DNA of 64,000 bases from a virus (Duplodnaviria > Heunggongvirae > Uroviricota > Caudoviricetes): the IMG/VR virus record IMGVR_UViG_3300007169_000056; one strand, written 5' to 3'. The first letter of the stretch is position 1, and the number at the start of each line of letters is the position of its first letter. The notes under the pieces are model-generated. The model saw only the letters and a program-made list of their open reading frames with translations, did not search any database and was not told the DNA's origin. A program made the translations under genes and the position numbers. Below are positions 5,262-61,423 of this stretch, in pieces.

Positions 5262-5268
5262 TAATTGT

Positions 5269-16987: not shown

Positions 16988-17094
16988 AATCTAATTTGAT
17001 CTTTGTGAAATGTCAATAATATATAGTTGGACACATTTTTATTCTTGACCAAATAGTTCTTGACGCTAATAAAATGTGATGATACGTTCGGAAT

Positions 17095-24904: not shown

Positions 24905-24932
24905 TTGACTTTTCAAAAAACTCTGGTACATT
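24905..24932 (+). promoter_or_regulatory. sigma70-like promoter (TTGACT, 16 nt, TACATT) placed for a leaderless ligase mRNA
   Basis: -10 ends 6 nt before the ATG at 24939. Confidence 0.45.
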
Positions 24933-37852: not shown

Positions 37853-37877
37853 CTCTCTATAATCTTCTTGGTAAAGT
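37849..37877 (+). promoter_or_regulatory. repeated promoter element copy 3 (TTGACTCTCTATAATCTTCTTGGTAAAGT)
   Basis: TTGACT, 17 nt, TAAAGT; ATG 6 nt after the -10. Confidence 0.45.
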
Positions 37878-41503: not shown

Positions 41504-42067
41504 ATGAACTACGAAAAAGAAAAGTTGATTGAACGTGCAGAAATTCTTGGCGTATACGATATTGCATCAGTAGTTATTGCAGATCCACGTTTTGAATTGT
41601 GGAGTGGGTCTAGCAAACCTGAACAACACCACTATGGTAAGGGTGGTCTACTTAGACATACGCATGAAGTGGTTGAGTTGTGTATTACCAATTGTAGTCT
41701 GTTGCAACTAAATATCGATCAGGTAGAGTTGTATTTGAGTGCATTGTTTCATGATTGTGGTAAGATGTGGGATTATGAACCAGTTGATTCGATTATGAAT
41801 TCTTGGCGTAGCACCGAACACAAACGATTGATTCATCACATCAGTCGTAGTGCATTGGTTTGGAATAGTGCGTGTACATTTCGCCGGCTTAAGTATGGTA
41901 ATTATGCGGATAGTGTCACACACAACATTTTGTCCCACCATGGACATCGTGAATGGGGTAGTCCTGTGATGCCAAAGACGAAGGCAGCATGGTTGTTGCA
42001 TTTGTGTGATGGTATTAGTGCTAGAATGAATGACGCAGACAAATGTGATTTTGTAAAGAAAGTATGA
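41504..42067 (+). CDS. HD-domain phosphohydrolase
   Basis: HTHEVVE and LFHDCGK (H...HD) metal-binding motifs. Confidence 0.5.
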   Translation: MNYEKEKLIERAEILGVYDIASVVIADPRFELWSGSSKPEQHHYGKGGLLRHTHEVVELCITNCSLLQLNIDQVELYLSALFHDCGKMWDYEPVDSIMNSWRSTEHKRLIHHISRSALVWNSACTFRRLKYGNYADSVTHNILSHHGHREWGSPVMPKTKAAWLLHLCDGISARMNDADKCDFVKKV

Positions 42068-42459
42068 CTAAAGACTATTATAATTCGTTGATGAATCCTG
42101 GTTTTTTATCAAGCGAAAAAAGTAAAAAAGATGAGATTGAATCGATAAAAAAGGAAAATATAGAGTTAAAGGCAAAGTTGACATTGTTGGAAACACTATA
42201 TAATGATTTGCAAAAAAGGATCAATATGAAAGAAACGCAAATAGAAGATATAAATGAATTGACCCACGAAGATGGTAATCCCCTTGTTGGATGTAGAATG
42301 CACGTAGGACCTGTAGGATCAAAACATGGATGGTTTTTTACTGTATCAAAAGAACCAACTAGTACAAAGGAATACGTTGAAATATTGGAAGAATTGATTA
42401 GGATGGCAAAAGCTCCCGATGTTGAAGATACAGAGGTATTGGGTGATCGTTCTTTGTAA
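42064..42459 (+). CDS. coiled-coil hypothetical protein
   Basis: ORF only. Confidence 0.4.
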   Translation: MTKDYYNSLMNPGFLSSEKSKKDEIESIKKENIELKAKLTLLETLYNDLQKRINMKETQIEDINELTHEDGNPLVGCRMHVGPVGSKHGWFFTVSKEPTSTKEYVEILEELIRMAKAPDVEDTEVLGDRSL

Positions 42460-42462
42460 CAT

Positions 42463-43038
42463 ATGAACGACTATATTTGTCATAGTGGTGGATGTGAAGG
42501 TGCTGACATGGGTTGGGAGGAAATTGGGTATCACTATAATGTCAAAACCATTGCATATAGTTTTTACAATCATCGACAGCACGGTCGAAACCAAAAGATC
42601 TTGACCTCTGAAGAACTTCAAGAAGGATATTCTGCTGCAAGAATTGCTAGTAGATCCATCGGCAGACCTTTTGATACAATTCAATATCCATACATCAAAA
42701 ATCTATTGGCACGAAACTGGTTTCAAGTCAAGAACAGTGAGGCAATTTTTGCAATTGCCAAAAGTTTTTTGACCAATACAATTGTTGAAGGAGGAACTGG
42801 TTGGGCCGTTCAAATGGCAATTGATTGTGACAAACCGGTATATGTGTGGGTTCCCGATGCATCGTGCTTTACTGGAGGATATTGGTGTAGATATAAGCCG
42901 GTTGTGGGATTTGAAGGCATGCGTGGTGAGATTCCGAAGTTAACCAAGAATTTTGCTGGTATTGGAACGAGAGATTTGACCGACGCTGGTTTAGCAGCAA
43001 TTGCAGAAGTGTATAAAAATACGTTTGGGGATATATAA
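42463..43038 (+). CDS. SLOG-superfamily Rossmann-like protein (YpsA/DprA/LOG-like)
   Basis: N-terminal glycine-rich HSGGCEGADMGW and second GGTGWAVQ motif, as in SLOG/LOG nucleotide-binding domains. Confidence 0.35.
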   Translation: MNDYICHSGGCEGADMGWEEIGYHYNVKTIAYSFYNHRQHGRNQKILTSEELQEGYSAARIASRSIGRPFDTIQYPYIKNLLARNWFQVKNSEAIFAIAKSFLTNTIVEGGTGWAVQMAIDCDKPVYVWVPDASCFTGGYWCRYKPVVGFEGMRGEIPKLTKNFAGIGTRDLTDAGLAAIAEVYKNTFGDI

Positions 43039-43042
43039 CAAT

Positions 43043-43360
43043 ATGAATACAAAGACAAGTTACATCAAAGACGAATCGTATTATGCTGAAGCTGAATCGA
43101 TGCAAGATGGTTGGGGTGATACATTGCGTTGGATTGATGTTTTGAAAGACAAAATTCAATATAAGAAAGAAATCACTCTCAAAGAATTTTGTTATAGTTT
43201 ATATGGCGATGGTTGGTGTAGTCATACGTGGGATGCGTTCAAGATGTATTGTGAAGAAGAATTGAAGTATTCACGTAAGCGGTTGGTTTATGATGCTTGG
43301 AAAGGTGTGTTTGACAAGTGGGTAAACACAGAGTATGATCGTAGTAAATTCTATCGATGA
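43043..43360 (+). CDS. hypothetical protein
   Basis: start trimmed to MNTKTSY. Confidence 0.4.
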   Translation: MNTKTSYIKDESYYAEAESMQDGWGDTLRWIDVLKDKIQYKKEITLKEFCYSLYGDGWCSHTWDAFKMYCEEELKYSRKRLVYDAWKGVFDKWVNTEYDRSKFYR

Positions 43361-43361
43361 T

Positions 43362-43571
43362 ATGACCAAACCTATTGGAGCAACACAAAAACAACTTGAC
43401 GACAACGATATTGAGTGGGTATTGTGCGGAAGTTACAATATTGGTATGAATAAAGGTCCAGAGAAATGGGCATTACGTCACAGCACTGAATATGAATGGG
43501 CTAAGGAACGAACAATGTTGTTGCAAGAAATTGCTAATTTGAAACGAATCAATAAAAGTCTACAAAATTAA
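43362..43571 (+). CDS. small protein carrying repeat module A (KPIGATQKQLDDNDIEWVLCG...ERTMLLQEIANLKR)
   Basis: cgaTGAtATGa junction; paralogous to the C-terminus of the 50815 gene. Confidence 0.4.
   Translation: MTKPIGATQKQLDDNDIEWVLCGSYNIGMNKGPEKWALRHSTEYEWAKERTMLLQEIANLKRINKSLQN
43368..43556 (+). repeat. direct repeat module A (left copy) bracketing the small-gene array
   Basis: shares the 36-nt identical core gaacgaacaatgttgttgcaagaaattgctaatttg (43506-43541) with 51262-51297. Confidence 0.7.
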
Positions 43572-43575
43572 ATAT

Positions 43576-43842
43576 ATGATAACCACACACGAACTAATAA
43601 AAGGTACAAGCGAAGAAATTCTACAACATATAACATCCAAACCAACATATAGTCACAGAGATAGTTTTGACATACAAACACAACTGGACACTATTGGGTT
43701 GGAAAAACAAGGCATGGTGTTTTATCTCGAACAACCAGATGCATCAAATTTTGTTTTTAAAAATGTATATGTTCATATCATTGATGGTGTTCGAAGAAAA
43801 CATATGGAAGATGTTTTAATTGATAAATATACTGTAAAATAA
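43576..43842 (+). CDS. small hypothetical protein
   Basis: array ORF. Confidence 0.4.
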   Translation: MITTHELIKGTSEEILQHITSKPTYSHRDSFDIQTQLDTIGLEKQGMVFYLEQPDASNFVFKNVYVHIIDGVRRKHMEDVLIDKYTVK

Positions 43843-43843
43843 T

Positions 43844-44113
43844 ATGAGAAAATACCCAAAAGAATGTAAATCTCCTGATCCTGATTTTGACTGGACCAAA
43901 ATCAAATGGACAAAATACAAGATTGTTGTGCCAACCAAAGCCGATGAAAAAGAACTAAGAGATGCGTTTAGACATATTCACGATTCAGATATTGATACAG
44001 ATTATATCGCCGTCAATCAATTGGCACATGAATATCTTGAAGACGATGGTTGTTGTAGTATCATTGTAGATAAAGAATTATATGAAGCACTAAATAAAAA
44101 AGAAAATAAATAA
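43844..44113 (+). CDS. small acidic hypothetical protein
   Basis: array ORF. Confidence 0.4.
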   Translation: MRKYPKECKSPDPDFDWTKIKWTKYKIVVPTKADEKELRDAFRHIHDSDIDTDYIAVNQLAHEYLEDDGCCSIIVDKELYEALNKKENK

Positions 44114-44114
44114 T

Positions 44115-44681
44115 ATGAACCGCCGAAAATTTATTACATCAACCGCACGTGCATTGCCATCAGTGACAGTGCTTGGTGCAATATCAACTCAACTTACCAA
44201 GACTTATAGAAGTCCAAAAAGCGTCTTTACAAATGAAGAATTAACTGAGTGGTGTGAAAAGAATGGTGGTCACTACGCTCAAGACAATGAATTGGTATAT
44301 GCTTATTATCAGACAAGTGATAGGGAATATGACCCAAAAAGTCCAAATGCGTATAAAGATCCATATAAGTCATTTAGACATTTGATTTTTCATATTCCAA
44401 CAGAATGTGATAAATACGAAGCACTCAATCGGTGGTTGGTATTTTATAGCCACAAGTATGGCAGTTATAGATTCATCATCAAAGACATCTATTATCCAGA
44501 TTATGTGATTGAAAATACCAAAATGATGCCTTTGATTGCGTCAACCAGAGAATATCCCAACGGTAAATCGCATGGATTTGGTTCTCCGATTTTTGATATC
44601 AAATCACACAAATACATTGTTCCAACATTTGAAGAACTGGATGAACGAACACTCAATTTTACAGGATTCAAATCTGTATGA
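44115..44681 (+). CDS. hypothetical protein, paralog B (FTNEELTEWCEKNGGHYAQDNEL)
   Basis: shares motifs with the 49518 gene. Confidence 0.45.
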   Translation: MNRRKFITSTARALPSVTVLGAISTQLTKTYRSPKSVFTNEELTEWCEKNGGHYAQDNELVYAYYQTSDREYDPKSPNAYKDPYKSFRHLIFHIPTECDKYEALNRWLVFYSHKYGSYRFIIKDIYYPDYVIENTKMMPLIASTREYPNGKSHGFGSPIFDIKSHKYIVPTFEELDERTLNFTGFKSV

Positions 44682-44863
44682 ACGAACGAGACATTCTACG
44701 TATAGCAAAACAAAGTGCAAAAAAGTTGGGATTACCTTCTCGATCTAAACGAATTTTACTAGAATATTTTGATGATTTTTTATGGTTTTTTGTTGCAACT
44801 TATATACGAATAGTATTTACCGTTGTACCAAAGAGATATCGTCATCTGTTTTTTAACCCATGA
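44678..44863 (+). CDS. small hypothetical protein
   Basis: array ORF. Confidence 0.3.
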   Translation: MNERDILRIAKQSAKKLGLPSRSKRILLEYFDDFLWFFVATYIRIVFTVVPKRYRHLFFNP

Positions 44864-45111
44864 ATATAATTTACGTTACATATGCAGTAGGCCCTCATTT
44901 GCAAGAGCTTGATTTGATTGAGCGTTTGTGCAAGTATGAGGGATACAGTGTTGCATTGATTTATCCGGAGAATCCGGATTTCAAACGATACTACAAGGGA
45001 GGACATCCAGCTATTCTGTTTTACGAGGAAGTTGACAAAGATCCCACTGTGTTGTATGGATTTTGGCAATTGGCAGAGTTTATGTTGAAACATGGAATGA
45101 TACGTTGTTGA
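44860..45111 (+). CDS. small hypothetical protein
   Basis: array ORF. Confidence 0.35.
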   Translation: MNIIYVTYAVGPHLQELDLIERLCKYEGYSVALIYPENPDFKRYYKGGHPAILFYEEVDKDPTVLYGFWQLAEFMLKHGMIRC

Positions 45112-45116
45112 CTACT

Positions 45117-45299
45117 ATGAATAGTATAACATCTGATATAGAAAAAATCATTAAAGATGGAAAAGGTTGGGGATCAGCATGGTATAGTCATGATGACAAG
45201 GTTCAATTGGATGGCACATTCTCAATTCAAGTATTGAGAGATATTGCCGATTTGGTTGAACGATGTATAAAGGAAGCTTCCAATAAACAGAAGGATTGA
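45117..45299 (+). CDS. small hypothetical protein
   Basis: start trimmed; ends in the AAGGATTGATATG junction. Confidence 0.35.
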   Translation: MNSITSDIEKIIKDGKGWGSAWYSHDDKVQLDGTFSIQVLRDIADLVERCIKEASNKQKD

Positions 45300-45300
45300 T

Positions 45301-45513
45301 ATGAAAAAACCAACCATCGTCACGACTGAACATCAAAGAAAATGGAACAAAGAAACTGTGGGAGTCACTCATATTGTTAGATATGATACTGAGTCAGAAC
45401 GCAGTTTTGTTACCAAAATAGATAAAGATACTGGCGAAGAACATTTTGATCATTGGGAGACACCAGATTTCCGACAACTAATCAAAGAAAAATACAATAT
45501 TGATGTCAAATAA
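45301..45513 (+). CDS. small hypothetical protein
   Basis: bounded by conserved junctions. Confidence 0.4.
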   Translation: MKKPTIVTTEHQRKWNKETVGVTHIVRYDTESERSFVTKIDKDTGEEHFDHWETPDFRQLIKEKYNIDVK

Positions 45514-45521
45514 GGATTGAT

Positions 45522-45767
45522 ATGAATGAAGATTACAATGTGCTTGGATTTGTGGCATTTATAAAGAATGGTGAACGCCACTATGGATGTCGTGGAAGAG
45601 GAAAAGACTATGATGATTTTTATGGTAGATTTCTAAATGGAAAATCATACAAATGCACTTCAGAAGATTTTCCTTGGGATTATTTTATATTCACTGATAT
45701 TAATGATGAACAACTCTTCTTGAAAGAATATTCATCAAAAATAGACTTTATAACTTCCGAGGATTGA
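45522..45767 (+). CDS. small hypothetical protein
   Basis: bounded by conserved junctions. Confidence 0.4.
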   Translation: MNEDYNVLGFVAFIKNGERHYGCRGRGKDYDDFYGRFLNGKSYKCTSEDFPWDYFIFTDINDEQLFLKEYSSKIDFITSED

Positions 45768-45768
45768 T

Positions 45769-46254
45769 ATGAATGATTCTAAACTACCAGATTGCATTGA
45801 CGATCAAGGACATTATTTTAAGACGTGTTCTAGGTGTGCATATATGGTATGTAGACGGTGCAACGCTCAATCTTATGATCATACATTAGGTATGTGTTCA
45901 ACCTATGGAGATTTTAGTGGAACAACAGCGGAATATGATAGATATTGTGATAGATGTGAACGATTATTGCAAAGGGGACGACCAACAGTGTATTCTCACT
46001 CATTCAAGTGTTATGAAGATTGGGAACAACATAGAATAGTTACCGGTGATATAATATGTAGACAATGTGACGGCAATGGATATTATATGACATATGGGAA
46101 TGAACCACGCAAATGTTGTAGTTGTGAAGGAACTGGCAAGTTTCCATCTCCAAGCCGTATTAAATACTTAGAGAGAATAAAAAAAGAAAAAAGTGAATAT
46201 CCTAAAGAAATGACTTCGTGGGATCTTTTCCTACAGTTATTCAAACTAAAATAA
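45769..46254 (+). CDS. Cys-rich zinc-finger protein
   Basis: multiple CxxC pairs (CSRCAYMVCRRC, CDRCE, CRQCDGNG, CCSCEGTG). Confidence 0.4.
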   Translation: MNDSKLPDCIDDQGHYFKTCSRCAYMVCRRCNAQSYDHTLGMCSTYGDFSGTTAEYDRYCDRCERLLQRGRPTVYSHSFKCYEDWEQHRIVTGDIICRQCDGNGYYMTYGNEPRKCCSCEGTGKFPSPSRIKYLERIKKEKSEYPKEMTSWDLFLQLFKLK

Positions 46255-46259
46255 TTGAT

Positions 46260-46739
46260 ATGACACAACCAGATACGGCGGATTTCTATTTGACCGCAAT
46301 AAAAAACAACAAAGAACGAAAAGAAAAAGAAAAGCACGAACAAAAAGAGCGTAATAGAACATATAAATCAACGCATCATCCTTGTGGTTGTAGAAATGAT
46401 GCGCCTCATTCTATACAATGTATTGAATATGATGTTGATAAAGGATTCAAAAACAGATTTATTGAACGTCATCCTAACTGGTATGATTCAGATGAATATT
46501 TTACATTGAATTTCAATACCACTGATGAATTGTTGCAATGTGAATATGTTGCTAGATATAAAAAAGACACTGATGCTGACAAATTTTACCAATATTCACT
46601 ATCAATAGACAAATATAGCCCGCCAATGTTGATGGCTGAGTATAATAATGGAACCAGTTGGTGGTGTCTTGGTAAACTACGAACAACCGATGGATTAAAT
46701 TTGCCAAAATGGGAACCTGTATACAAAAAGAAGGATTGA
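46260..46739 (+). CDS. hypothetical protein
   Basis: start trimmed to the junction ATG. Confidence 0.4.
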   Translation: MTQPDTADFYLTAIKNNKERKEKEKHEQKERNRTYKSTHHPCGCRNDAPHSIQCIEYDVDKGFKNRFIERHPNWYDSDEYFTLNFNTTDELLQCEYVARYKKDTDADKFYQYSLSIDKYSPPMLMAEYNNGTSWWCLGKLRTTDGLNLPKWEPVYKKKD

Positions 46740-46740
46740 T

Positions 46741-46980
46741 ATGAAAATACAAAATATAAACACGTCGTGGAAAAATCAAAATGCAATAGATGATGATATG
46801 TGTAATTATGCTATTCAGATTAGCAAACCAACCGGAAAAATAGGCTTTTATGAAAACGTAACACTGAAAGATAAATATCTCAATATAGAAACAGCAGTGC
46901 AAAAAGCCACCGAAGTTCAAAACGTATTAAAAGCAATAGATTCGTACATCCAAGTTTCAGTGGTAGAAGGATTGATATGA
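46741..46980 (+). CDS. small hypothetical protein
   Basis: bounded by conserved junctions. Confidence 0.4.
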   Translation: MKIQNINTSWKNQNAIDDDMCNYAIQISKPTGKIGFYENVTLKDKYLNIETAVQKATEVQNVLKAIDSYIQVSVVEGLI

Positions 46981-47252
46981 AATACAAAACATTTGCGGAT
47001 GCTATGAATGATGGATGGTCATTGGTGCCTATAGACAAAGAAATTGCACAAATAGGAACTTATTATTCATATTGGAAAAAGGATGGCAAAGTATTGTGTG
47101 AGGACGAGTTGATTGAAAATTGGACCATGAACAATTCACACCAACAACTAACTACTATTTCTGAAAAATGGAAGCACATATTTCCGCCCAATGAACCGTC
47201 TGGTCCGATGAAGCCAATTCTCATTGAAGGACAACAGAAAAAATTGATATGA
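46977..47252 (+). CDS. small hypothetical protein
   Basis: ATGA start/stop overlap junctions. Confidence 0.4.
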   Translation: MKYKTFADAMNDGWSLVPIDKEIAQIGTYYSYWKKDGKVLCEDELIENWTMNNSHQQLTTISEKWKHIFPPNEPSGPMKPILIEGQQKKLI

Positions 47253-47503
47253 ATGAAAAACTAATAAACGTTGGTGATTGTTGTGTGGCTATCAAGGCTA
47301 TCAATTTAGATAAATCATCTCATGATGAAATCGATGCCTATGGTAAAGCTAATAACTTGACAATAGTATATGCTGACTGGCATCCAAATCCTGAATATCG
47401 TATATCAAAAACTGGTAGTTTTTTGAGTCAAAATAAAAAATATCCAAGCGGACTAATTTTAGTGGATAATAAAGGAGAACCACATCCATACAAAAAAGAT
47501 TGA
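47249..47503 (+). CDS. small hypothetical protein
   Basis: bounded by conserved junctions. Confidence 0.4.
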   Translation: MNEKLINVGDCCVAIKAINLDKSSHDEIDAYGKANNLTIVYADWHPNPEYRISKTGSFLSQNKKYPSGLILVDNKGEPHPYKKD

Positions 47504-47504
47504 T

Positions 47505-47690
47505 ATGACCCGTAAAGAAGAACTAGAATATAGACTTAAACAAATTGGTAATAGAATAATTGAGCATGGACGAGATGCTGCATTAAAAGGAATATCCATT
47601 GATGATAATCCGTGGAAAGGATTTTCACATGAGTTCCATATTTGGCGAAACGGTTGGATATTTGAAACCAATTTGAAAAAAGAGGATTAA
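47505..47690 (+). CDS. small hypothetical protein
   Basis: bounded by conserved junctions. Confidence 0.4.
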   Translation: MTRKEELEYRLKQIGNRIIEHGRDAALKGISIDDNPWKGFSHEFHIWRNGWIFETNLKKED

Positions 47691-47691
47691 T

Positions 47692-48174
47692 ATGAAAACA
47701 ATACCCATAAAAATTGGAGGATCTACACTGGTAGGTTATGTTGCTGACAGTTATCCAATCGACGGTGGCAATTGTTTTGATTTGATTGATACCGATGGTA
47801 GTAGACATCGTGTTGTAAACTTTGGATATGAGAATCTAAAAGAGTGGATGAAACGAACTGGACAGACTGATATTATGGTTCGTTGTATTCCAAAATCAGA
47901 TAAATTGTGGGAGATTTGTGATGAACGTATACCCAAAGAGTGGTATAGCAGTGAATATTGCACAGTTTGCACTCCTATTAGGATGTTGCCGTTTGAGCAG
48001 CGTAAACAATATGTCAAAAACAAGAAGTTTACAAAGACAAAAGATGGAGATTTAATAATTTCTACGACTCTTGTTCCACAAGCCAGAAAATTGAATTTCA
48101 AATGGGCGACTGAAATTGAACAAAATATGGTATACGCCCATTATATACCAATAATCAAAAACAAAATGATATGA
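47692..48174 (+). CDS. hypothetical protein
   Basis: bounded by conserved junctions. Confidence 0.4.
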   Translation: MKTIPIKIGGSTLVGYVADSYPIDGGNCFDLIDTDGSRHRVVNFGYENLKEWMKRTGQTDIMVRCIPKSDKLWEICDERIPKEWYSSEYCTVCTPIRMLPFEQRKQYVKNKKFTKTKDGDLIISTTLVPQARKLNFKWATEIEQNMVYAHYIPIIKNKMI

Positions 48175-48353
48175 GCCGCAAGATTTTAAAGAACTATTGT
48201 TTTGAATTAGACAATTTTGAACGAGGTATAAACAAACGAATGCAAATTATTGTATCCGATTACAATTTGAAAAATGCTAAAAACCAAGTAAAAAAAATGT
48301 TGGGTAAGATTGTAGCAGATAAAATGACATTAGAGTTTTCAGAAAAGGCTTGA
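48171..48353 (+). CDS. small hypothetical protein
   Basis: bounded by conserved junctions. Confidence 0.35.
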   Translation: MSRKILKNYCFELDNFERGINKRMQIIVSDYNLKNAKNQVKKMLGKIVADKMTLEFSEKA

Positions 48354-48354
48354 T

Positions 48355-48573
48355 ATGACTTATGAAGATAAATTAAATGAGTTGAAATTAAAAGGTTATG
48401 ATAGTTCAAATATTAATAATGTGATTGAATACAAGTGCAGCAATCCAGAGTGTGATGTTGTTAATTATGGAACGACATTTTCTTTTTATGCATATACATT
48501 GTATGGCAAACCAAAAGGTGGATGCCGCGTATGTAAATCACCAATAGAAATTACAGTAATTAATGAAAATTGA
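48355..48573 (+). CDS. small zinc-ribbon protein
   Basis: CSNPEC ... CRVCKSP. Confidence 0.4.
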   Translation: MTYEDKLNELKLKGYDSSNINNVIEYKCSNPECDVVNYGTTFSFYAYTLYGKPKGGCRVCKSPIEITVINEN

Positions 48574-48574
48574 T

Positions 48575-48847
48575 ATGTCAATAGTAAATTATATGATATA
48601 CGGTGGGTATAAAGAAATACCACGGGAAGAATATTATGAGTGGTTCAAAAACGCCTCTATCATAAGAGAAGAAAGTTTTGTAATTTCAAATTTTTGCGGA
48701 CCCCACGAATTTTCCACTACTATCAGTAAAAATGGAATGACTTATGAGTTGGGATGGGGATGGCATGTAGAAAATGGTAAAACCATAGACTGGTATGGAG
48801 TAAGAAAACTACACACAGATCATAATCAAAATGGAAACGGTATATGA
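48575..48847 (+). CDS. small hypothetical protein
   Basis: start trimmed to the junction ATG. Confidence 0.4.
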   Translation: MSIVNYMIYGGYKEIPREEYYEWFKNASIIREESFVISNFCGPHEFSTTISKNGMTYELGWGWHVENGKTIDWYGVRKLHTDHNQNGNGI

Positions 48848-49260
48848 CCACAAAAACACATATAGTATGTCCTGCGTGCAATAAACCCACCGGAGAGATT
48901 GATCATTTTGTAGATTTTAACAAGTCAGTTAAAACACGATGGTATTGTGATAGTTGTATGACGGACTTGGAATATAATAAAGCAATCATATTAAATAATT
49001 TTACAGAAGAACAATATAGAGAATTGTTTGAGGGTCCGGACTATGATTTGAAACTCATACGAGCGGCAAAAAAATATAAACTTAGAATGGATAAAGAAGT
49101 GTTAACTGAGTATCTTACGGAACAATTAATTCATGCGAGTTCCGGAGAATATATTGGGGAGGGTTATCACGGAGGGTTATCATGTGAAGAATGGAGACGT
49201 AGAAGAATTTGTTTGGAACAATGTTTAGCCGAATTAAATAGTATAAATGAAGAGAATTAA
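48844..49260 (+). CDS. zinc-finger hypothetical protein
   Basis: CPACNKP ... CDSCMTD. Confidence 0.4.
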   Translation: MTTKTHIVCPACNKPTGEIDHFVDFNKSVKTRWYCDSCMTDLEYNKAIILNNFTEEQYRELFEGPDYDLKLIRAAKKYKLRMDKEVLTEYLTEQLIHASSGEYIGEGYHGGLSCEEWRRRRICLEQCLAELNSINEEN

Positions 49261-49261
49261 T

Positions 49262-49513
49262 ATGACCAAAACACAACTAAAAAAAATCAAAGAACTTGAC
49301 GCATTTCTAAAACAAAGAAAGATGGAATTGCGAGGAAGTGATATTATTATGGGGTTTAATATGCAGACGTATGGAACTGAAAAGCATGTTCAACTAAATC
49401 TAGATATAGGATATATCAGAGGCAGCGACTCTGATATTCAAGAACTAAACAAAATACCAAAAATAAAAGAACATTATCATATTGACAAAAATGGAAAATT
49501 AAAATCATATTAA
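49262..49513 (+). CDS. small hypothetical protein
   Basis: start trimmed to the junction ATG. Confidence 0.4.
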   Translation: MTKTQLKKIKELDAFLKQRKMELRGSDIIMGFNMQTYGTEKHVQLNLDIGYIRGSDSDIQELNKIPKIKEHYHIDKNGKLKSY

Positions 49514-49517
49514 TGAG

Positions 49518-49949
49518 ATGATAATACCCAATACTTCATGTAGAAGTGCTACGAGTTTGTTCACAAATGAAGAATTGACTGTCTGGTGCAAAAATAACGG
49601 TGGACATTATGCACAAGAAAATGAACTAAACAGTGTGTTTTTTGAACAACAATATGAACAATGTGTTGAGGTTTATAATACACTTGATCCAGATTTTATC
49701 CGAAAATATGATCATCTAAATGATTTTCTTGATATTCATAGAACCAATATCGCTAGATACAATCGTTATATCACAAGAAAGAATAACAACATTCGGTTTG
49801 ATATATTTGACGGCGATCCATTTATTTCTGGATTGGATTTAATATATAATTCCAACAGATTTGTGATCAAAGACGTGTATACAAAACCAAGTATTATTTC
49901 ATTTCGATATGTAATAGATGGTAGAAGATCCGACAAACAAAAAGATTGA
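49518..49949 (+). CDS. hypothetical protein, paralog B-prime (FTNEELTVWCKNNGGHYAQENEL)
   Basis: shares motifs with the 44115 gene. Confidence 0.4.
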   Translation: MIIPNTSCRSATSLFTNEELTVWCKNNGGHYAQENELNSVFFEQQYEQCVEVYNTLDPDFIRKYDHLNDFLDIHRTNIARYNRYITRKNNNIRFDIFDGDPFISGLDLIYNSNRFVIKDVYTKPSIISFRYVIDGRRSDKQKD

Positions 49950-49950
49950 T

Positions 49951-50142
49951 ATGACTGAAAAAGGATATACATTAAATGAGATGTTGGAAAACAGCAGAAT
50001 ACTTGCGAGTGAAATCAAAAAGGATAATTTTCCAATAGAAGGCACCACTGAAAAAGATTATATGATAGTTGGTAACATTGCTGTTTACACACCGTATATT
50101 CCATTGTATACTACACCTTTAATAACAGATAAGAAGGATTGA
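49951..50142 (+). CDS. small hypothetical protein
   Basis: bounded by conserved junctions. Confidence 0.4.
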   Translation: MTEKGYTLNEMLENSRILASEIKKDNFPIEGTTEKDYMIVGNIAVYTPYIPLYTTPLITDKKD

Positions 50143-50143
50143 T

Positions 50144-50344
50144 ATGAAGATCAAAGTAATTAAGCAATACGATCCCATCAAATTTACAGAGGCGGTAAAT
50201 AATCATTTAACTGATGGATGGCAATTATTTGGAGAACCAAAAATTGAAACAGTTGTAGAACAAAAGATGTGGGATGGTGATCCATATAGCGTAACCCATA
50301 CTGTATATCATCAAATAGTAAAAACCGGAAAAAATGAAAACTAA
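50144..50344 (+). CDS. small hypothetical protein
   Basis: bounded by conserved junctions. Confidence 0.4.
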   Translation: MKIKVIKQYDPIKFTEAVNNHLTDGWQLFGEPKIETVVEQKMWDGDPYSVTHTVYHQIVKTGKNEN

Positions 50345-50552
50345 GTATCTATCAGTATATCCAGAATGGCATTGTAGAAAAGCTGGAGGATTGTTTTTTG
50401 GATTTCGATTAGACTTTCCATGTAGTATTTACGACGCTGATGCTTTTGCGTCAAATCACACCTATACTGATATTAGATTGACATTAGGACTAATTGCGTT
50501 TAGTGTCAAAGTACATATCAAATACAACTATAAGAAAACGTTACCTCAATGA
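50334..50552 (+). CDS. small hypothetical protein
   Basis: ORF only. Confidence 0.35.
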   Translation: MKTKYLSVYPEWHCRKAGGLFFGFRLDFPCSIYDADAFASNHTYTDIRLTLGLIAFSVKVHIKYNYKKTLPQ

Positions 50553-50818
50553 ATAAAAATATAACTATAATTAAGAAACTAAAAGACGATAAATATCAAA
50601 ATGATCATTCTCAGGTCGATGAAGAAACCAGAAATATTTATAAATGGCCCAAATGGTATTGGGGATTAGGATCCGATGGAGAATTATATTTTAAAGGACA
50701 AATCTCCGGATATTCGTATCCAAACTGGACAAAAAAATCGGGGGTAGAGTTGCCACTTTCAACAGAGGAAATTTGCAGGCTAAGTGATTTTATACGTTTT
50801 TATCTAAACTTGATATGA
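50549..50818 (+). CDS. small hypothetical protein
   Basis: ends in a TTGATATGA junction. Confidence 0.4.
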   Translation: MNKNITIIKKLKDDKYQNDHSQVDEETRNIYKWPKWYWGLGSDGELYFKGQISGYSYPNWTKKSGVELPLSTEEICRLSDFIRFYLNLI

Positions 50819-51333
50819 AAGCGAACACACGACCGATTGTTAAACCGTGGGTAGTAAGCAGTTTAAAAAAATCTATAGACGAATATTTGTATAGTATGGC
50901 AGAAAAGGAAAATCGATGTTTACACGATTCGTGTTTAGAGTGTAATGGAACAGGAACAAACAAATATAACGGACAGCCGTGTGTCCATATGATAAGTTGT
51001 AGATGTAGTAAATGTTCTAGCGGGGCACAAATAGAACCATGGATTATGAAAAAAGTTGACGAATCTTTACGAAACAGATTTCCGGATAGAGAAAGTCGAA
51101 CATTGCCTTTTGAAAAAAATATGAATAAACCCATCGGTGCAACACAAAAACAGTTGGATGACAACAATATCGAATGGGTATTATGCGGCAACTATGGACA
51201 TAGAGATACCCAAGAACCAAAATGGGCATTGCGTCATAGCAGTGAATATGACTGGGCGAAAGAACGAACAATGTTGTTGCAAGAAATTGCTAATTTGCGT
51301 AGACAGATAACACGATTGGAAGGTTTGACATGA
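50815..51333 (+). CDS. Cys-rich protein with C-terminal repeat module A-prime
   Basis: CLHDSCLECNGTG, CRCSKCS; C-terminus KPIGATQKQLDDNNIEWVLCG...ERTMLLQEIANLRR. Confidence 0.45.
   Translation: MKANTRPIVKPWVVSSLKKSIDEYLYSMAEKENRCLHDSCLECNGTGTNKYNGQPCVHMISCRCSKCSSGAQIEPWIMKKVDESLRNRFPDRESRTLPFEKNMNKPIGATQKQLDDNNIEWVLCGNYGHRDTQEPKWALRHSSEYDWAKERTMLLQEIANLRRQITRLEGLT
51127..51310 (+). repeat. direct repeat module A-prime (right copy)
   Basis: 36-nt identical core at 51262-51297 matching 43506-43541. Confidence 0.7.
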
Positions 51334-51488
51334 TAGAAATTGACTATCAACCGACGAACAGACAAAAGGTTCAAAAAACCACAAAACACAAGTTTTGGTG
51401 TAAATGTGACCGGAATATTGTTGGTGAAATAGGCAAATGTCCCGTATGTGGTCGATACAATAGAAAAAACAGAAAACGGTTGAGATAA
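51330..51488 (+). CDS. small zinc-ribbon protein (52 aa)
   Basis: hand-translated MIEIDYQPTNRQKVQKTTKHKFWCKCDRNIVGEIGKCPVCGRYNRKNRKRLR. Confidence 0.35.
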   Translation: MIEIDYQPTNRQKVQKTTKHKFWCKCDRNIVGEIGKCPVCGRYNRKNRKRLR

Positions 51489-51679
51489 TGAGTGAAATAT
51501 CACCAAAATGGCCAACATTGGAAGGCCGACTAAATAATCCAATCACCGATGAACTTACTGCTTTACTTCAGTTGAAAGAGTCAGTACCATTGTCTGAATT
51601 GGCAGAAAAACGTCTCAAACAGTTATTAAACGATAAAAACAAAATTAACTATGAAGTGGACAAAAAAGAAACCAAATAA
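51488..51679 (+). CDS. small hypothetical protein
   Basis: TAATG overlap with the upstream gene. Confidence 0.35.
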   Translation: MSEISPKWPTLEGRLNNPITDELTALLQLKESVPLSELAEKRLKQLLNDKNKINYEVDKKETK

Positions 51680-51842
51680 AACTGGATACTATTGGTATAA
51701 ATCAGATTCTACTCAAGGACTTGAAATGCTACGCGTCAGAGAACATAAAGGTGGGTTTTTTGCGGACAACGAAGAATATAATTTCGTAATTGATGCATCT
51801 GATGAATCTGAAAGATGGTGTTACATTCCAGAACCCAAATAA
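51651..51842 (+). CDS. small hypothetical protein
   Basis: ORF only. Confidence 0.3.
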   Translation: MKWTKKKPNKTGYYWYKSDSTQGLEMLRVREHKGGFFADNEEYNFVIDASDESERWCYIPEPK

Positions 51843-51845
51843 CAT

Positions 51846-52361
51846 ATGAGTAATTTATTAAAACATGCTGAACGTGAACTGTCTCTCATTGGTTATGACG
51901 GTACAGATGAATATGATAATACAGCAAAAAAGGCTATATTAGAACTAATAGAAACATTTGCCAAACAAGGTCACAGCGGATTTAGCGCTGGTTACGTGGT
52001 AAGTCTTTTCAACAAACTGGCAAGATATGAGACATTATCTCCATTGACTGGTAATGATGATGAATGGAATGAAATACTCGACAATCAACCTCAACACGGA
52101 GTTTTGTTTCAAAATAATAGAAACAGTGCTGTTTTTAAAACAGACGGTGGATGTTATTATATTGATGCTATTGTGTGGATTGACGAAACCGGATGTAGCT
52201 TCACCAATGGAAGAAGCCGAGGATATATCAAGTCGTTTCCATTCACACCCAAAACGTTTTATGTACATGTAGATGCAAATGATGTCGTCATAGACACCGA
52301 AGAACATCAGAAAGCTCTCGACTATTATCACCATGAACAAAACGTTGGAAAAGTTTTGTGA
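51846..52361 (+). CDS. hypothetical protein
   Basis: ORF only. Confidence 0.4.
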   Translation: MSNLLKHAERELSLIGYDGTDEYDNTAKKAILELIETFAKQGHSGFSAGYVVSLFNKLARYETLSPLTGNDDEWNEILDNQPQHGVLFQNNRNSAVFKTDGGCYYIDAIVWIDETGCSFTNGRSRGYIKSFPFTPKTFYVHVDANDVVIDTEEHQKALDYYHHEQNVGKVL

Positions 52362-52608
52362 AGTAGAACTTCGTGCTTTGTCTATCTACAAAGAAAAATA
52401 CACGACAAAAGATCAATTGTATGATCAGTTACTTGCTGAGTTTGGTAAAAGGTACGAAAATGTTATTTTACTGGCAATTGAAGCTGCCGCAGAAGCAAGC
52501 AATTTTCATGACGATGTTGGTCCTTGGATGCGTGACTTGAAAGAAAAAGCTGGACACTTTACCCTAGAAGATCTAAAATCAACAAGAATTTATGTCAAAT
52601 CCAACTAG
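52333..52608 (+). CDS. small hypothetical protein
   Basis: ORF only. Confidence 0.35.
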   Translation: MNKTLEKFCEVELRALSIYKEKYTTKDQLYDQLLAEFGKRYENVILLAIEAAAEASNFHDDVGPWMRDLKEKAGHFTLEDLKSTRIYVKSN

Positions 52609-52879
52609 AGAAAAACTAACGTTAACTAAAGAACAAGCCCTAGATATTATCGGGGGTGATAACAAAGACTTTGTTGAAATCCAAAACGAAATCGTGGAAC
52701 ACAAACGGTGGAGTGTGGTACACGAAATCGTCGTTAAACGAAAGTCTGACGGAAAATATTTCATGGACACTTATCAAACTGGTGCAACTGAAAGCCAAGA
52801 CGAATGGCCCTATGAATATACCGATCCGGATTTTACAGAAGTCTTTCCAGTAACTAAAACATACATCGATTATGAATAA
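52592..52879 (+). CDS. small hypothetical protein
   Basis: ORF only. Confidence 0.35.
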   Translation: MSNPTREKLTLTKEQALDIIGGDNKDFVEIQNEIVEHKRWSVVHEIVVKRKSDGKYFMDTYQTGATESQDEWPYEYTDPDFTEVFPVTKTYIDYE

Positions 52880-53297
52880 CCGAAACACAATCAGTGAATG
52901 TCGTGTCTATGACGAGAAGTATCGGTGTTGGGACGACACGCCGTTGATGATTTATCCAAACCAACAGATTGTCAAACAAGGTCGTATCATTCAGTGGTAT
53001 ACAGGTGTTCTTGACAAACATGGTAAGAAAATCTATGAAGGTGATGTAGTCAAAACCATTGATAGTGGTATTGGCGTATTGTTTGGCGCACCAAAATACA
53101 CCCGTGGAGTAATCACATGGCTTCGTGAATCATTTTGTATATGTCAAAGTTACGTGGGCGGTAACGAACTAAGCAATTATGTTTTTTGTGATTGCTGTGG
53201 CTGTGACTTGATTGTCATTGGCAATATCTTTGACAATCCAGAATTGTTGGAAGACGATCCTGTTGTCAAACAATCGCGAGAAACTAAAAAAGATTGA
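52872..53297 (+). CDS. YopX-family protein
   Basis: C-terminal IGNIFDNPELLE resembles the YopX IGNIyeNPELL signature. Confidence 0.5.
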   Translation: MNNRNTISECRVYDEKYRCWDDTPLMIYPNQQIVKQGRIIQWYTGVLDKHGKKIYEGDVVKTIDSGIGVLFGAPKYTRGVITWLRESFCICQSYVGGNELSNYVFCDCCGCDLIVIGNIFDNPELLEDDPVVKQSRETKKD

Positions 53298-53329
53298 CAA
53301 TTTGTGGAAGTTAGTATAAAGTATCTGTA

Positions 53330-53797
53330 ATGAGAACATACAAGAGTGATCACTACAAGAATTCCAAGGGCGAACAGATAGAGTTCAGGGTTTTGGTGTA
53401 TACTCGCCCCAATCTTCGTGATGGTATTGGTGAAATGTTGATGTATCGTGGAAAAACCATTTTGGAAATCATGTTTGACAAGTGTATGGTTGATCCTGAC
53501 ATTACGTGTATCGATATGGAATACCCTGAACGATGGGCAAACATTCTTGAACTTCGGGCAATTCCAAATCGTATGTTGGCTTGTTTTCCTAATTTGAAAC
53601 AAGTATTGATTAAGACCCATTCGGTCTACATTATTCAGTGTGTTCACTCCGAACACATTGGTATTTGTGACGACGCCAGCAAGTATCCAGAAAAGGATTA
53701 TGCTGATATCAACACTCGTTATTGCGATGGTCCTGAGCAGTTTACGGGACTGTGGACAATGACTCCTTCTACTGGTCTAAAGAAAGTACATCCATGA
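53330..53797 (+). CDS. hypothetical protein
   Basis: ORF only. Confidence 0.4.
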   Translation: MRTYKSDHYKNSKGEQIEFRVLVYTRPNLRDGIGEMLMYRGKTILEIMFDKCMVDPDITCIDMEYPERWANILELRAIPNRMLACFPNLKQVLIKTHSVYIIQCVHSEHIGICDDASKYPEKDYADINTRYCDGPEQFTGLWTMTPSTGLKKVHP

Positions 53798-53970
53798 AAT
53801 ACTCTTACGCATACAATTTGTATGATAAAGACGGCGACGTGTATGAAGACTGTTTATTGGTTTTCATTGGTGACAATACCATCGTTAAATTTCAAGATAG
53901 TATTGAACTTGAACAATTTGCACATCGTATTCTAAGCAGCATCAAAGAAATCCGAGAGAGTGAAAAATGA
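53794..53970 (+). CDS. small hypothetical protein
   Basis: ATGA overlap start. Confidence 0.35.
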   Translation: MKYSYAYNLYDKDGDVYEDCLLVFIGDNTIVKFQDSIELEQFAHRILSSIKEIRESEK

Positions 53971-54449
53971 AAACTGCATACGACTTGATCACAGAATTCT
54001 ATGGTACTCGTTGTGCCAAACGGTCGGGGGTACCACTGATCAATCATATCAATGAGGGATTGAAGATTTTGGATCTTTTGAATTGTTGTGATGCCACCAA
54101 AAAAGCATACGTTATTCATCCAATTGTACAAGACGGTGAATCTTTAGCAAAAAATTACGAAACTGTTCAACATCTTGACGGCAAGACGTTGATTTTTGCT
54201 ATGGAATACCGCAGAACTGCCAATGCGTGGTTGTGTGGCATGAAAAAGCCAAAGAATCCACTGTCGCCGTTGCATCAAGTTAATCAAATGTTGACAGCAG
54301 ATAAGATTCAGAACCGTAAAGATTTTGAAATCTATCATAAAGCTACTCATGAAAACTCAGCAGAGTTGACTCAGTATTTTTCAGAGTGGTTAGACACATT
54401 GGGTGTGTCTGAATCGGACTATACCAAATGGTTAGAAATTATCAAATAA
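53967..54449 (+). CDS. hypothetical protein
   Basis: ORF only. Confidence 0.4.
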   Translation: MKTAYDLITEFYGTRCAKRSGVPLINHINEGLKILDLLNCCDATKKAYVIHPIVQDGESLAKNYETVQHLDGKTLIFAMEYRRTANAWLCGMKKPKNPLSPLHQVNQMLTADKIQNRKDFEIYHKATHENSAELTQYFSEWLDTLGVSESDYTKWLEIIK

Positions 54450-54451
54450 GT

Positions 54452-54709
54452 ATGAAACCAGACAAAGAAGGATTGTGGGAATGGACCGACGACAACGGAG
54501 ACGTTCGTGTCGTAAACGTCATTGACGTTGGACATGACAGTCCGTGGTTGAGGGTGTATTATCTTGGTGGATACTACAATGTTCACGACGAATGTATTGG
54601 AACTCCCGACGAGGAATATTCAAAAGCAGAATGGCCAGATCGTTGGGGTCGTTACTTGGGAACGCTCGAAAGCATTCCTCTTGAAGAAACTTACGGTGGA
54701 ATTTTATGA
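54452..54709 (+). CDS. small hypothetical protein
   Basis: start trimmed. Confidence 0.35.
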   Translation: MKPDKEGLWEWTDDNGDVRVVNVIDVGHDSPWLRVYYLGGYYNVHDECIGTPDEEYSKAEWPDRWGRYLGTLESIPLEETYGGIL

Positions 54710-55107
54710 CTGACAAAGTAAAACAAGTTATTGTAATTCGTACCGATCTTCGCAATAGTCAAAATAAAAAAGTTAGAACTGGCAAATTGATTGCACAAGC
54801 CTGTCATGCTAGTATTGCTTTTCTAAGCAACCGAATCAGAAAAAATTTTGGATTGCCAATTCCTTTATCCAAAGCAGAAATGCAATGGATCGAAGGATCT
54901 TTCTTCAAAGTTTGTGTCGGTGTTGATACCGAACAAGAATTGCTTGACATTTTGGAAAAAGCCCGTACACTGGGTGTAGAGTGTAATCTGATTACCGACC
55001 AAGGACATACTGAATTTAATGGTGTTCCTACCAACACTTGTTTGGCTTTGGGACCAGATTACAGCAGCAAAATTGATACTATTACGGGACATCTTAAACT
55101 ACTATAA
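54706..55107 (+). CDS. peptidyl-tRNA hydrolase, PTH2 family
   Basis: VIVIRTDLRNSQNKKVRTGKLIAQACHAS N-terminus and C-terminal LITDQGHTEFNGVPTNTCLALGPD match PTH2. Confidence 0.6.
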   Translation: MTDKVKQVIVIRTDLRNSQNKKVRTGKLIAQACHASIAFLSNRIRKNFGLPIPLSKAEMQWIEGSFFKVCVGVDTEQELLDILEKARTLGVECNLITDQGHTEFNGVPTNTCLALGPDYSSKIDTITGHLKLL

Positions 55108-55110
55108 ATT

Positions 55111-55698
55111 ATGCCAACCGGATATACAGCATTGGTTTATGAAAACAAAAACGTGTCGTTCAAAGATTTTGTACTTACATGTGCACGTGCTTTTGGACCG
55201 TGTATGCATCAACGTGACGACGATATGAGGGATAAGCCCAAACTTCGTGAACCATCCATTCAATATCACTTGGATGCAATCGAAGCAGCTAAGAAAAATT
55301 CAAAACCGTCCAAGACTGCGTTCAACAAATACAAGAAGGATAAAATCGAGGAATATAAACAATACATCCAAGAAAAGAAACAACTCAAGGAACGATATCA
55401 ACTTATGCTGAATCAGGTACAGATGTGGACTCCTCCTACATCCGATCATGATGGACTTAAAAAGTTCATGATCAGTCAGTTGAACAGTAGCATTGAATTT
55501 GATTGTTCAGTTGATGGATCTACGCGTGATTTGGATACCTACACAAACATGACTTATGAAGATTATGTTGCAGAGTTGAAAAAGAGTAATGATTGGGAGA
55601 TCAAATATCACACAGAAGAAATTGAAAAAGAAAAGATAAATGCTGAACGTGCAAATAAATGGATTTTGGCTTTGTACGACAACTTGAACAACAACTAA
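55111..55698 (+). CDS. hypothetical protein
   Basis: ORF only. Confidence 0.4.
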   Translation: MPTGYTALVYENKNVSFKDFVLTCARAFGPCMHQRDDDMRDKPKLREPSIQYHLDAIEAAKKNSKPSKTAFNKYKKDKIEEYKQYIQEKKQLKERYQLMLNQVQMWTPPTSDHDGLKKFMISQLNSSIEFDCSVDGSTRDLDTYTNMTYEDYVAELKKSNDWEIKYHTEEIEKEKINAERANKWILALYDNLNNN

Positions 55699-61416: not shown

Positions 61417-61423
61417 GAATCAT

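Follow-up and report, generated by a model that had tools for sequence, protein, structure and literature searches.

Among the described systems closest to the locus reported here are the promoter-early stem-loops (PeSLs) of T4-type phages, which consist of ~100 bp of intergenic DNA with a strong sigma-70 promoter and a terminator hairpin (Arbiol et al. 2010, PMC2839356; Comeau et al. 2014, PMC4122927). PeSLs are conserved repeats concentrated in hyperplastic regions beside orphan genes (PMC2839356, PMC4122927), they delimit the indels that distinguish close relatives, and their expression signals travel with the cassette so that recombinants stay viable; our locus shares all of these properties. 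For lambdoid phages, the Susskind-Botstein idea (summarised in PMC3029335) likewise places homologous recombination at short conserved 'linker' sequences between functional units. At the level of translation, ATGA/TGATG junctions with a 4-nt overlap or a 1-nt gap and an SD-like element inside the 3' end of the upstream gene are described for termination-reinitiation (Huber et al. 2019, PMC6728339; 2023, PMC10666635). This form of coupling requires overlaps or very short gaps (PMC10666635), and in some leaderless-rich lineages Shine-Dalgarno motifs serve mainly re-initiation (PMC6728339). T4 RegA operators are, like the element described here, A/U-rich and unstructured, with the AUG included and a 5' A-tract, and common to many early genes (PMC3014915). 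Integron arrays also resemble our locus, in their promoterless single-gene cassettes, conserved separating site and strain-variable content. Their attC sites are imperfect inverted repeats of 57-141 bp that are recombined by an integrase.

Unlike a PeSL, the connector that we describe is conserved over only ~14 nt (with up to 19 nt of identity), lies where genes are separated by about -4 to +8 nt, and acts at a translational stop-start junction that accepts two upstream frames. Unlike the lambdoid linkers, it recurs at almost all junctions of a single array, on the scale of single genes, and doubles as stop and start codons. Ordinary coupled junctions share the stop-start overlap and often an upstream SD-like element, whereas the connector adds ~10 conserved bases, which recur whatever the gene pair, related or not, and whatever the reading phase.

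In the 64-kb stretch of phage DNA analysed (the window), 22 gene junctions follow one another on the + strand between 45291 and 51333 (the array), and 17 of them carried AAGGATTGATATGA or a close variant, with at least 10 of 14 matching bases as the threshold for calling a connector. Within ~14 nt the motif combines stop and start codons with a site that resembles a ribosome-binding site; in the consensus, AAGGATTGAT-ATG-A is preceded by an A-rich tract. Five copies were perfect (45291, 45512, 46731, 46967, and 50134). The core GATTGATATGA occurred eight times in the window, always on the + strand (45294, 45515, 45762, 46734, 46970, 47498, 49944, and 50137), where shuffles predict 0.16 occurrences, and this verified the shared junction cassette proposed in an initial annotation of the sequence. 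All 12 copies of TTGATATGA fell within 45.1-50.9 kb and none in the remaining 58 kb; this confinement applies to the 64-kb window only, and the whole phage genome is probably larger than 200 kb. Outside 45291-51333, four of 117 start sites reached 10/14 and none scored higher. Of 21 array junctions, 6 had the 11-mer GGATTGATATG; among the 117 non-array junctions, no 11-mer was common to more than two. The initial annotation had let the array run from 43358 to 50818, which held from 45291 onwards; the first seven junctions (43358-45120) matched at 4-10 of 14 bases and carried only a generic stop-T-ATG-A. Its core coordinates, as starts of the 14-mer, were exact at 45291, 45512, 45759, 46731, 46967, 47495, and 49941, and the eighth moves from 50131 to 50134. 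The positions it gave for variants were those of adjacent start or stop codons and not of motif starts, and two junctions had been overlooked (48565-48578 and 51320-51333).

The motif contains TGA in two frames (bases 7-9 and 12-14) and the ATG of the next gene in the third (bases 11-13). It is read in the two phases that had been recognised initially, and in addition as intergenic DNA after a TAA. The K-D-stop reading applies to the perfect copies at 45291-45304 (TGA, gap of 1 nt, ATG 45301), 46731-46744 (ATG 46741), and 50134-50147 (ATG 50144), to AAAGATTGATATGA at 47495-47508 (13/14, ATG 47505), and, as E-D-stop, to GAGGATTGATATGA at 45759-45772 (13/14, ATG 45769) and GAGGATTAATATGA at 47682-47695 (12/14, stop codon TAA, ATG 47692). 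In the other phase, the perfect copy at 46967-46980 ends the upstream protein in E-G-L-I-stop with an ATGA overlap (ATG 46977), as does AAAAATTGATATGA at 47239-47252 in K-L-I-stop (12/14, ATG 47249). Stop-start overlaps were also seen for the degenerate copies ACAAAATGATATGA at 48161-48174 (10/14, M-I-stop, ATG 48171) and TAAACTTGATATGA at 50805-50818 (10/14, L-I-stop, ATG 50815), and for the final array copy, AAGGTTTGACATGA at 51320-51333 (12/14, G-L-T-stop, ATG 51330). The gene upstream of the connector at 48161 has an orthologue in a related contig, L089, that terminates in the other phase with K-K-N-stop. The intergenic reading was found for the perfect copy at 45512-45525, where the upstream TAA overlaps the first motif bases and leaves a gap of 8 nt (ATG 45522), and for AATAATTGATATGA at 46250-46263 (12/14, ATG 46260). 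The remaining copies are AAGGCTTGATATGA at 48345-48358 (13/14, ATG 48355), GAAAATTGATATGT at 48565-48578 (10/14, with the true start of the next gene at ATG 48575), GAGAATTAATATGA at 49252-49265 (11/14, ATG 49262), and a second AAAGATTGATATGA at 49941-49954 (13/14, ATG 49951).

All-against-all blastp comparison of 32 array proteins revealed two related pairs only. Since the flanking proteins are unrelated, the likeness of the array junctions does not stem from paralogy; together with the several reading phases this confirms the initial view that conservation lies on the DNA or RNA and not on the peptide. The contrasting case is contig L027, where the recurring junctions are due to YopX paralogues that lie in tandem and whose protein ends are conserved. 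A paralogous segment brackets the array: its left copy (43362-43541, +) shares 77% amino-acid identity by blastp with the right copy (51121-51303, +), which is the C-terminal domain of g50815, and the segment is also present in L082 and L083.

The array is part of a hyperplastic accessory region of ~13 kb (41504-54705, +) delimited by tblastn and Pfam searches, in which g41243 and g54706 enclose ~50 small genes, most of them orphans. When window proteins were searched by tblastn against the relatives L001, L002, and L004, the counterparts of these two genes were found only ~1 kb apart. Pfam gave almost no matches to array proteins. Homologues of array genes were found in altered orders in the more distant relatives L089, L084, L211, and L027, in homology blocks that correspond to single genes and with the motif still at the junctions. 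The 3' half of the motif (ATTGAT-ATG) accompanies the downstream gene, as it precedes homologues of g48575 behind four different upstream genes. Several cassette boundaries in relatives lack the exact motif, e.g. ACGGTATATGA after g48575.

In near-identical strain contigs (98-99.8%), homology to the window stops at the motif. L082 is 99.8% identical from 46265 onwards, whereas the sequence ahead of this point is unrelated and the break falls at TTGATATGACACAA in the connector at 46250, and L083 is 99.2% identical from 48568 onwards, with its breakpoint at the connector at 48565. At the connector at 49941, L083 has an additional 77-aa gene between two copies of the 13-base GATTGATATGACT, of which the window has a single copy (49944); it is at a third copy in L083 that homology between L083 and L082 ends. 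L089 contains a three-gene insert flanked by a 20-nt repeat that includes the motif. Presence, absence and reordering of cassettes with breakpoints at the motif agree with the shuffling suggested initially, in a comparison that comprises a handful of events on short metagenomic contigs, where assembly errors at repeats are possible. Outside the array, two strain-level indels (54769-55591 and 60592-61797) both break inside genes, and the inspected junction of the latter shares at most ~2 nt. Gene g51651 is flanked by AGAAACCAAATAA and AGAACCCAAATAA, imperfect 13-nt repeats that both end in TAA (51667-51842, +, repeats included), and L083 lacks the segment between them; this indel is at junction level without the main motif. 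Because this indel and some boundaries in relatives lack it, the motif is not required for junction-level exchange.

The gaps between array genes were +1 nt (n = 9), -4 nt (n = 7), -11 nt (n = 2), and +4, +5, and +8 nt (n = 1 each), so that the array junctions show the stop-start overlap or few-nt spacing that is one feature of coupled junctions. Outside the array no Shine-Dalgarno signal rose above background: AGGA, GGAG or GAGG at -20 to -5 preceded 9 of 102 starts, compared to 8.9% expected. Within it, AAGGA was present at -10 to -6 in ~7 of 20 starts and at only ~7-9 of the 17 connector junctions. AAGGA may act as a Shine-Dalgarno sequence, a function that is uncertain since the rest of the window uses none. 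Among 27 matches to TTGAC-N16-18-TAnnnT, 13 end 6-11 nt ahead of a start codon, which implies transcripts of the leaderless type. The best sigma-70-like match near the array (TTGACA-17-TATGAT, 11/12; 43311-43339, +) ends 22 nt before ATG 43362 and is a candidate promoter of the long gene train to which the array belongs. The next strong match, of the leaderless type (TTGACA-17-TAAAGT; 53294-53322, +), ends 7 nt before ATG 53330 and likely marks the end of a promoter-poor stretch, within which a single weaker match was found at 50478; the array falls in the longest stretch of the window between strong matches (43311 and 53294). Unlike PeSLs, the connectors bring neither promoter enrichment (77 matches in 40-56 kb vs. 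68.2 ± 8.7 in shuffles) nor hairpins: a promoter-like match coincided with only three junctions, through the motif's own TTGATA, and no terminator hairpin was found at any junction, with 11 terminator-like sites compared to 7.5 ± 2.9 in shuffles. Folding predictions further revealed that junction windows were less stable than intragenic ones (-4.1 vs. -7.0 kcal/mol, p = 5e-4).

The motif could be a translation-initiation region and nothing else, conserved because every small gene depends on precisely such a start context, with random illegitimate recombination as the source of rearrangements and selection retaining the junction-to-junction products. That the ATTGAT-ATG half moves with its downstream gene, that some junction-level breakpoints lack the motif, and that unstructured A-rich junctions are typical of start regions would all follow. 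We nevertheless consider it unlikely that the motif is without a mechanistic role in recombination: inserts have direct repeats of 13 and 20 nt at their flanks, perfect and with the motif inside, which is a homology signature, the gene-internal indels that persist outside the array in the same strains indicate that imprecise events are not quickly purged, and over 100 further window genes do without such a start context. It is scarcely credible that the pattern is trivial, left over from genes duplicated in tandem or simply the usual ribosome-binding context of the phage. ATGA starts, a T at -1 and closely spaced stop and start codons are indeed common window-wide, but none of the other 117 junctions has the specific part, (A)AGGATTGAT, the proteins on either side are unrelated, and the Shine-Dalgarno frequency outside the array equals background. 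The possibility raised initially, of a merely generic ribosome-binding context, was thus not borne out in the window.

An improbable alternative is that the motif serves as the RNA operator of a post-transcriptional regulator of the phage, a RegA-like repressor or RegB-like endoribonuclease in early-gene shutoff, and that recombination is a side effect. The T4 RegA SELEX consensus, aaAAUUGUUAUGUAA (PMC3014915), is, by eye, identical in 12 of 15 positions to the junction at 47249, AAAAUUGAUAUGAAU, RegB targets GGA in early start regions (PMC3014915) and the motif contains GGA, and the array genes resemble early accessory genes. Likeness to a short AU-rich consensus could, however, be due to chance, and the connector differs from RegA sites in its G-rich AAGGA and obligatory stop codons, neither of which RegA requires. 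No regA homologue was found by tblastn in the window or the fetched relatives, with a T4 RegA query that was validated by a 1e-36 match to an unrelated T4-like contig, L115. Pfam scans of array and other window proteins likewise returned no RNA-binding regulator family, and an operator would leave the motif-flanked indels unexplained. A dedicated site-specific recombinase or homing nuclease acting on the motif, in an integron-like cassette system, would account for single-gene cassettes, a conserved separating site and strain-variable content, and integrons and attC sites are reported to occur in phage genomes (PMC9892861). We regard this as very improbable. The conserved element is merely ~14 nt long, without the inverted repeat or hairpin of an attC site, and its junctions are less structured than controls; Pfam identified no recombinase in the window, with no integrase, HNH or GIY-YIG family among the array and other scanned window proteins; and the repeats flanking inserts are not of one length (13 and 20 nt), which points to homology-based and not to site-specific events.

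We hypothesized that the connector acts at two levels, as DNA homology for cassette exchange and as stop-start coupling on the mRNA, and we assign this reading a probability of roughly 0.6. On the DNA, connector copies would constitute dispersed direct repeats, between which recombination or replication slippage could produce clean deletion, insertion or reassortment of single-gene cassettes. The comparison of relatives supports a role of the motif as short homology for such exchange, and we infer that the homology itself may drive it. Identity between motif copies is unbroken for 11-19 nt in the window and 13-20 nt in relatives, and copies that share 11-20 nt could plausibly recombine in a phage. 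In T4, deletions between short direct repeats are known. As TGA is present in two frames and ATG in the third, genes should emerge intact from exchanges between such copies: whichever of the two frames the upstream gene uses, it would end at the motif, and the downstream gene would keep its start. On the mRNA, ribosomes that terminate where the stop codon lies 1 nt before the next start or overlaps it by 4 nt, in A-rich and unstructured sequence, could re-initiate on the following cistron, and they may be retained or attracted by AAGGA, a putative Shine-Dalgarno sequence placed 5 nt ahead of the AUG. The anatomy of the junctions fits translation that would be coupled across the connector. The feature is a portable stop-start connector between unrelated small genes in the variable region of a large uncultured phage of the virulent type.

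The 14-base connector AAGGATTGATATGA was present in five perfect copies, and the sequence GATTGATATGA occurred eight times against 0.16 expected, each time at a gene junction and on the + strand. At least 10 of the 14 bases were matched at 17 of the 22 consecutive junctions that form the array (45291-51333); outside the array, 10/14 was reached by 4 of 117 starts and exceeded by none. All 12 window copies of TTGATATGA lay within 45.1-50.9 kb, and GGATTGATATG was common to 6 of 21 array junctions, while elsewhere in the window no junction 11-mer was shared more than two times. This distribution is known within the 64 kb of genome that was read. The positions listed in the initial annotation correspond to the starts of the 14-mer and were exact with one exception; two extra copies had been overlooked (48565 and 51320), and the junctions at 43358-45120, which had been counted into the array, lack the motif. 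Scanning IMG/VR for the exact 14-mer returned 120 single matches, at chance level, and no arrays. Minus-strand matches in the contigs L008 and L018 were dismissed as chance, as they lie on the non-coding strand.

Paralogy was tested as the source of the motif and rejected. In blastp comparisons among the 32 array proteins (genes are named by their start coordinate) only two pairs were related, g43362 with the C-terminus of g50815 and g44115 with g49518; the proteins flanking the motif are otherwise unrelated, and conservation ends after approximately 14 nt. By contrast, the YopX tandem in the related contig L027 shows repeated junctions that arose from paralogy, with the protein ends conserved as well. 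Nor is it the peptide that is conserved, in agreement with the initial annotation's reading of the two phases: identical bases give K-D-stop or G-L-I-stop, or form spacer after a TAA stop. The possibility that the motif is simply the generic start context of this phage was also tested and rejected. The context outside 45.2-51.4 kb consists only of T at -1 (75%) and A at +4 (79%), and AGGA, GGAG or GAGG occurred at -20 to -5 in 9 of 102 starts outside the array, equal to the background of 8.9%, which gives no Shine-Dalgarno signal. G was depleted upstream of starts outside 45.2-51.4 kb. The absence of Shine-Dalgarno sites is unusual for a phage using sigma-70-type promoters; a Bacteroidota host, first suspected from this absence, was dropped in view of intergenic TTGACA-N17-TAnnnT promoters and GC-stem/T-tract terminators.

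The array is bracketed by two copies of a paralogous segment (77% amino-acid identity), arranged as direct repeats (43362-43541 and 51121-51303), with a further copy at the start of strain contig L082; recombination between the bracketing copies could remove the array entirely. The g44115 family is conserved; in relatives (L084, L086, L087) it lies between DHFR and thymidylate synthase. The window member (44115-44681) is located in the accessory region, with a diverged paralogue at 49518-49949.

Cassette variation among near-identical strains was compared in a few short metagenomic contigs that cover the array except for its left part (43-46 kb). L082 matches window 46265-51201 at 99.8% identity and is unrelated to it farther upstream, with the change at TTGATATGACACAA; its differing upstream genes are joined by AAGAATTGAT-ATG and AAAGATTGAT-ATG. 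In the same contig (1135-1821), g46260 carries an N-terminal domain resembling g44678, fused in frame (window 44678-44863 and 46260-46739), and the two forms differ by 68 codons in frame, bounded by a 4-nt ACAA microhomology. The second strain contig, L083, is 99.2% identical from window 48568, with the breakpoint at a connector. It contains an extra gene of 77 aa, absent from the window, with GATTGATATGACT on both flanks versus one window copy at 49944, and a third copy of this 13-mer in L083 marks the point where homology to L082 ends. Gene g51651 is missing from L083 and lies between two imperfect 13-nt repeats each ending in TAA; its absence is a junction-level event via a repeat other than the motif.

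The main rival explanation is that the connector is an element for translation only, and that illegitimate recombination followed by selection produced the observed variants. Both the motif-flanked inserts and the behaviour of the same strains elsewhere weaken it. Outside the array, the breakpoints of the two strain-level indels (54769-55591 and 60592-61797) lie inside genes. The 60592-61797 deletion, which was inspected in detail, shares at most about 2 nt at its junction and removes a DSPc-like gene together with part of the NADAR gene, leaving remnants. Since imprecise intragenic indels of this kind persist in strain populations, selection alone seems an unlikely source of the breakpoint precision within the array.

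In relatives whose Prs is 70-83% identical, only about 1 kb separates the genes on either side of the entire region, and we therefore consider the 13 kb of small, mostly orphan genes around the array (41504-54705) hyperplastic. No loci related to g47692 were found in IMG/VR, and in JGI metagenomes only the 2-kb contig L089 was recovered. At approximately 76-78% nucleotide identity, L089 carries homologues in the order g48575, the extra gene of L083, g47692, and g44860. The motif occurs four times within its 2 kb, and an insert of three genes is bounded by a 20-nt repeat that includes the motif. Two of its connectors are followed by mini-ORFs (1312-1329, MNNTNK-stop, and 1606-1629, MKKMNGL-stop), the first of which matches exactly the first codons of the gene at L089 2000 and resembles a scar from a past exchange. 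The order in L084 is g48575, g44678, g51330, g47692, and further on g42463 and g44115. L211, which comes from a widespread and more distant relative, contains four copies of TTGATATGA in 20 kb, all at junctions, including those ahead of the g48575 homologue and ahead of DHFR.

AAGGATTGATATGA contains TGA at bases 7-9 and 12-14, in two frames, and ATG at bases 11-13, in the third. An upstream gene in either TGA frame would end inside the motif and the next gene would start there, so that exchanges between such copies should give intact genes. This layout would explain how one sequence can be a safe crossover point and also serve in different phases. No enrichment of promoter-like or terminator-like matches was observed in the array region, and the array is located within the longest stretch between strong promoter matches (43311 to 53294). 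Of 27 promoter-like TTGAC-N16-18-TAnnnT matches in the window, 13 have a start codon 6-11 nt beyond their end; examples are 10114-10142, 11160-11189, 17060-17088, 24905-24932, 26334-26362, 37849-37877 and 53294-53322, and several come after GC-stem/T-tract terminators. This spacing suggests leaderless-type transcripts, with many first genes leaderless or nearly so. Gaps at the array junctions are nearly all +1 or -4, the stop-start spacing required for re-initiation (PMC10666635), and in some leaderless-rich lineages Shine-Dalgarno motifs are used mainly for re-initiation (PMC6728339). From the promoter spacing, the junction gaps and these published studies we infer that the connector may also couple the translation of successive genes in the train and that its AAGGA may help to retain ribosomes.

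It may also be suggested that the motif is an operator for a RegA- or RegB-like regulator, given its 12/15 resemblance to the RegA SELEX consensus (PMC3014915), but a regA homologue was not found in the window or in the related loci. Site-specific recombination at the motif, as in integrons, is opposed by the lack of an integrase among the window proteins scanned and of structure at the junctions, which on folding were less structured than gene interiors. The connector functions similarly to the promoter-early stem-loops (PeSLs) of T4-type phages (PMC2839356, PMC4122927) and to the boundary sequences suggested for lambdoid phages (PMC3029335). Of four PeSL-defining features that were tested, three are missing from the connector, and it differs from PeSLs in kind because a PeSL is a transcriptional cassette and the connector a translational stop-start junction. 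We found no specific prior description in the literature of stop-start connectors as recombination sites.

The window is an accessory part of a large uncultured phage. Its relatives in IMG/VR and other metagenomes are found on contigs of up to 365 kb, and array proteins are also carried by longer contigs of 50 kb to 1 Mb. The array had no megablast match among GenBank phages, and tblastn with the ligase and NadV gave distant matches only (<50% identity), in phages of many hosts. Nearly all genes are tightly packed on the + strand, and no tRNA genes were found. Recognisable products include an ATP-dependent DNA ligase, a glycosyltransferase, a collagen-like tail fibre, pyrophosphatase, PTH2, SpoU methylase, dCMP deaminase, a PAS domain protein, and a SET-domain protein (6658-7053; PF00856, E = 1e-10) of a type uncommon in phages. 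A further NAD-related set consists of an NMN adenylyltransferase/Nudix protein, NadV, Prs and NADAR (33785-34744, 35166-36785, 56181-57161 and 61424-61948) and NAD synthase, and it may counter NAD-depleting host defences. Directly downstream of the array, 51846-52361 strongly matches the Type I Thoeris inhibitor Tad3 (PF25185, E = 7e-38), homologues of which occur on 56 IMG/VR contigs. A small array protein (47505-47690) weakly matches ribosome modulation factor (RMF; E = 0.002, below the Pfam cutoff), and clearer RMF-family genes are present in relatives (L086 9034-9198, L087 8042-8206). GC skew is very high in window 1-6000 (0.32-0.47), and the G-rich string GGGGTGGGCAGCG(C/T)AAATAA recurs upstream of two genes, e.g. 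at about 25-50 and 580-605.

Phage genomes are mosaics, and it is an old and unsettled question whether their modules are exchanged at short conserved boundary sequences or recombine illegitimately at random, with selection acting afterwards. Against the boundary-sequence view it is usually objected that such sequences are not found at most boundaries (PMC3029335). In this accessory-gene array nearly all junctions (17/22) show such a sequence, and natural variants show whole-gene differences flanked by the motif, against breakpoints inside genes elsewhere in the same strains, which makes the question testable in a defined system. We hypothesize, with a probability of roughly one in four, that large environmental phages of one lineage share the connector as a standard plug-and-play interface, an integrase-free analogue of the integron that spreads by the exchanges it promotes. 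Any ORF with an 11-14 nt connector could be inserted at any other copy by general or phage recombination, and its expression would be immediate, since the stop of the preceding gene, a ribosome-retention site and the ORF's own start all come with the connector; each such exchange would in turn spread the motif. If true, this would be the clearest natural example, at single-gene resolution, of the boundary sequences long proposed for phage modular evolution. A 14-nt connector that links arbitrary genes into a polycistron, with coupling as we infer it, could also be a useful element for design. Because Tad3 and NAD-salvage genes adjoin it, the array is probably a reservoir of anti-defence or host-takeover genes, and the speed at which this reservoir turns over is relevant to phage-host arms races.
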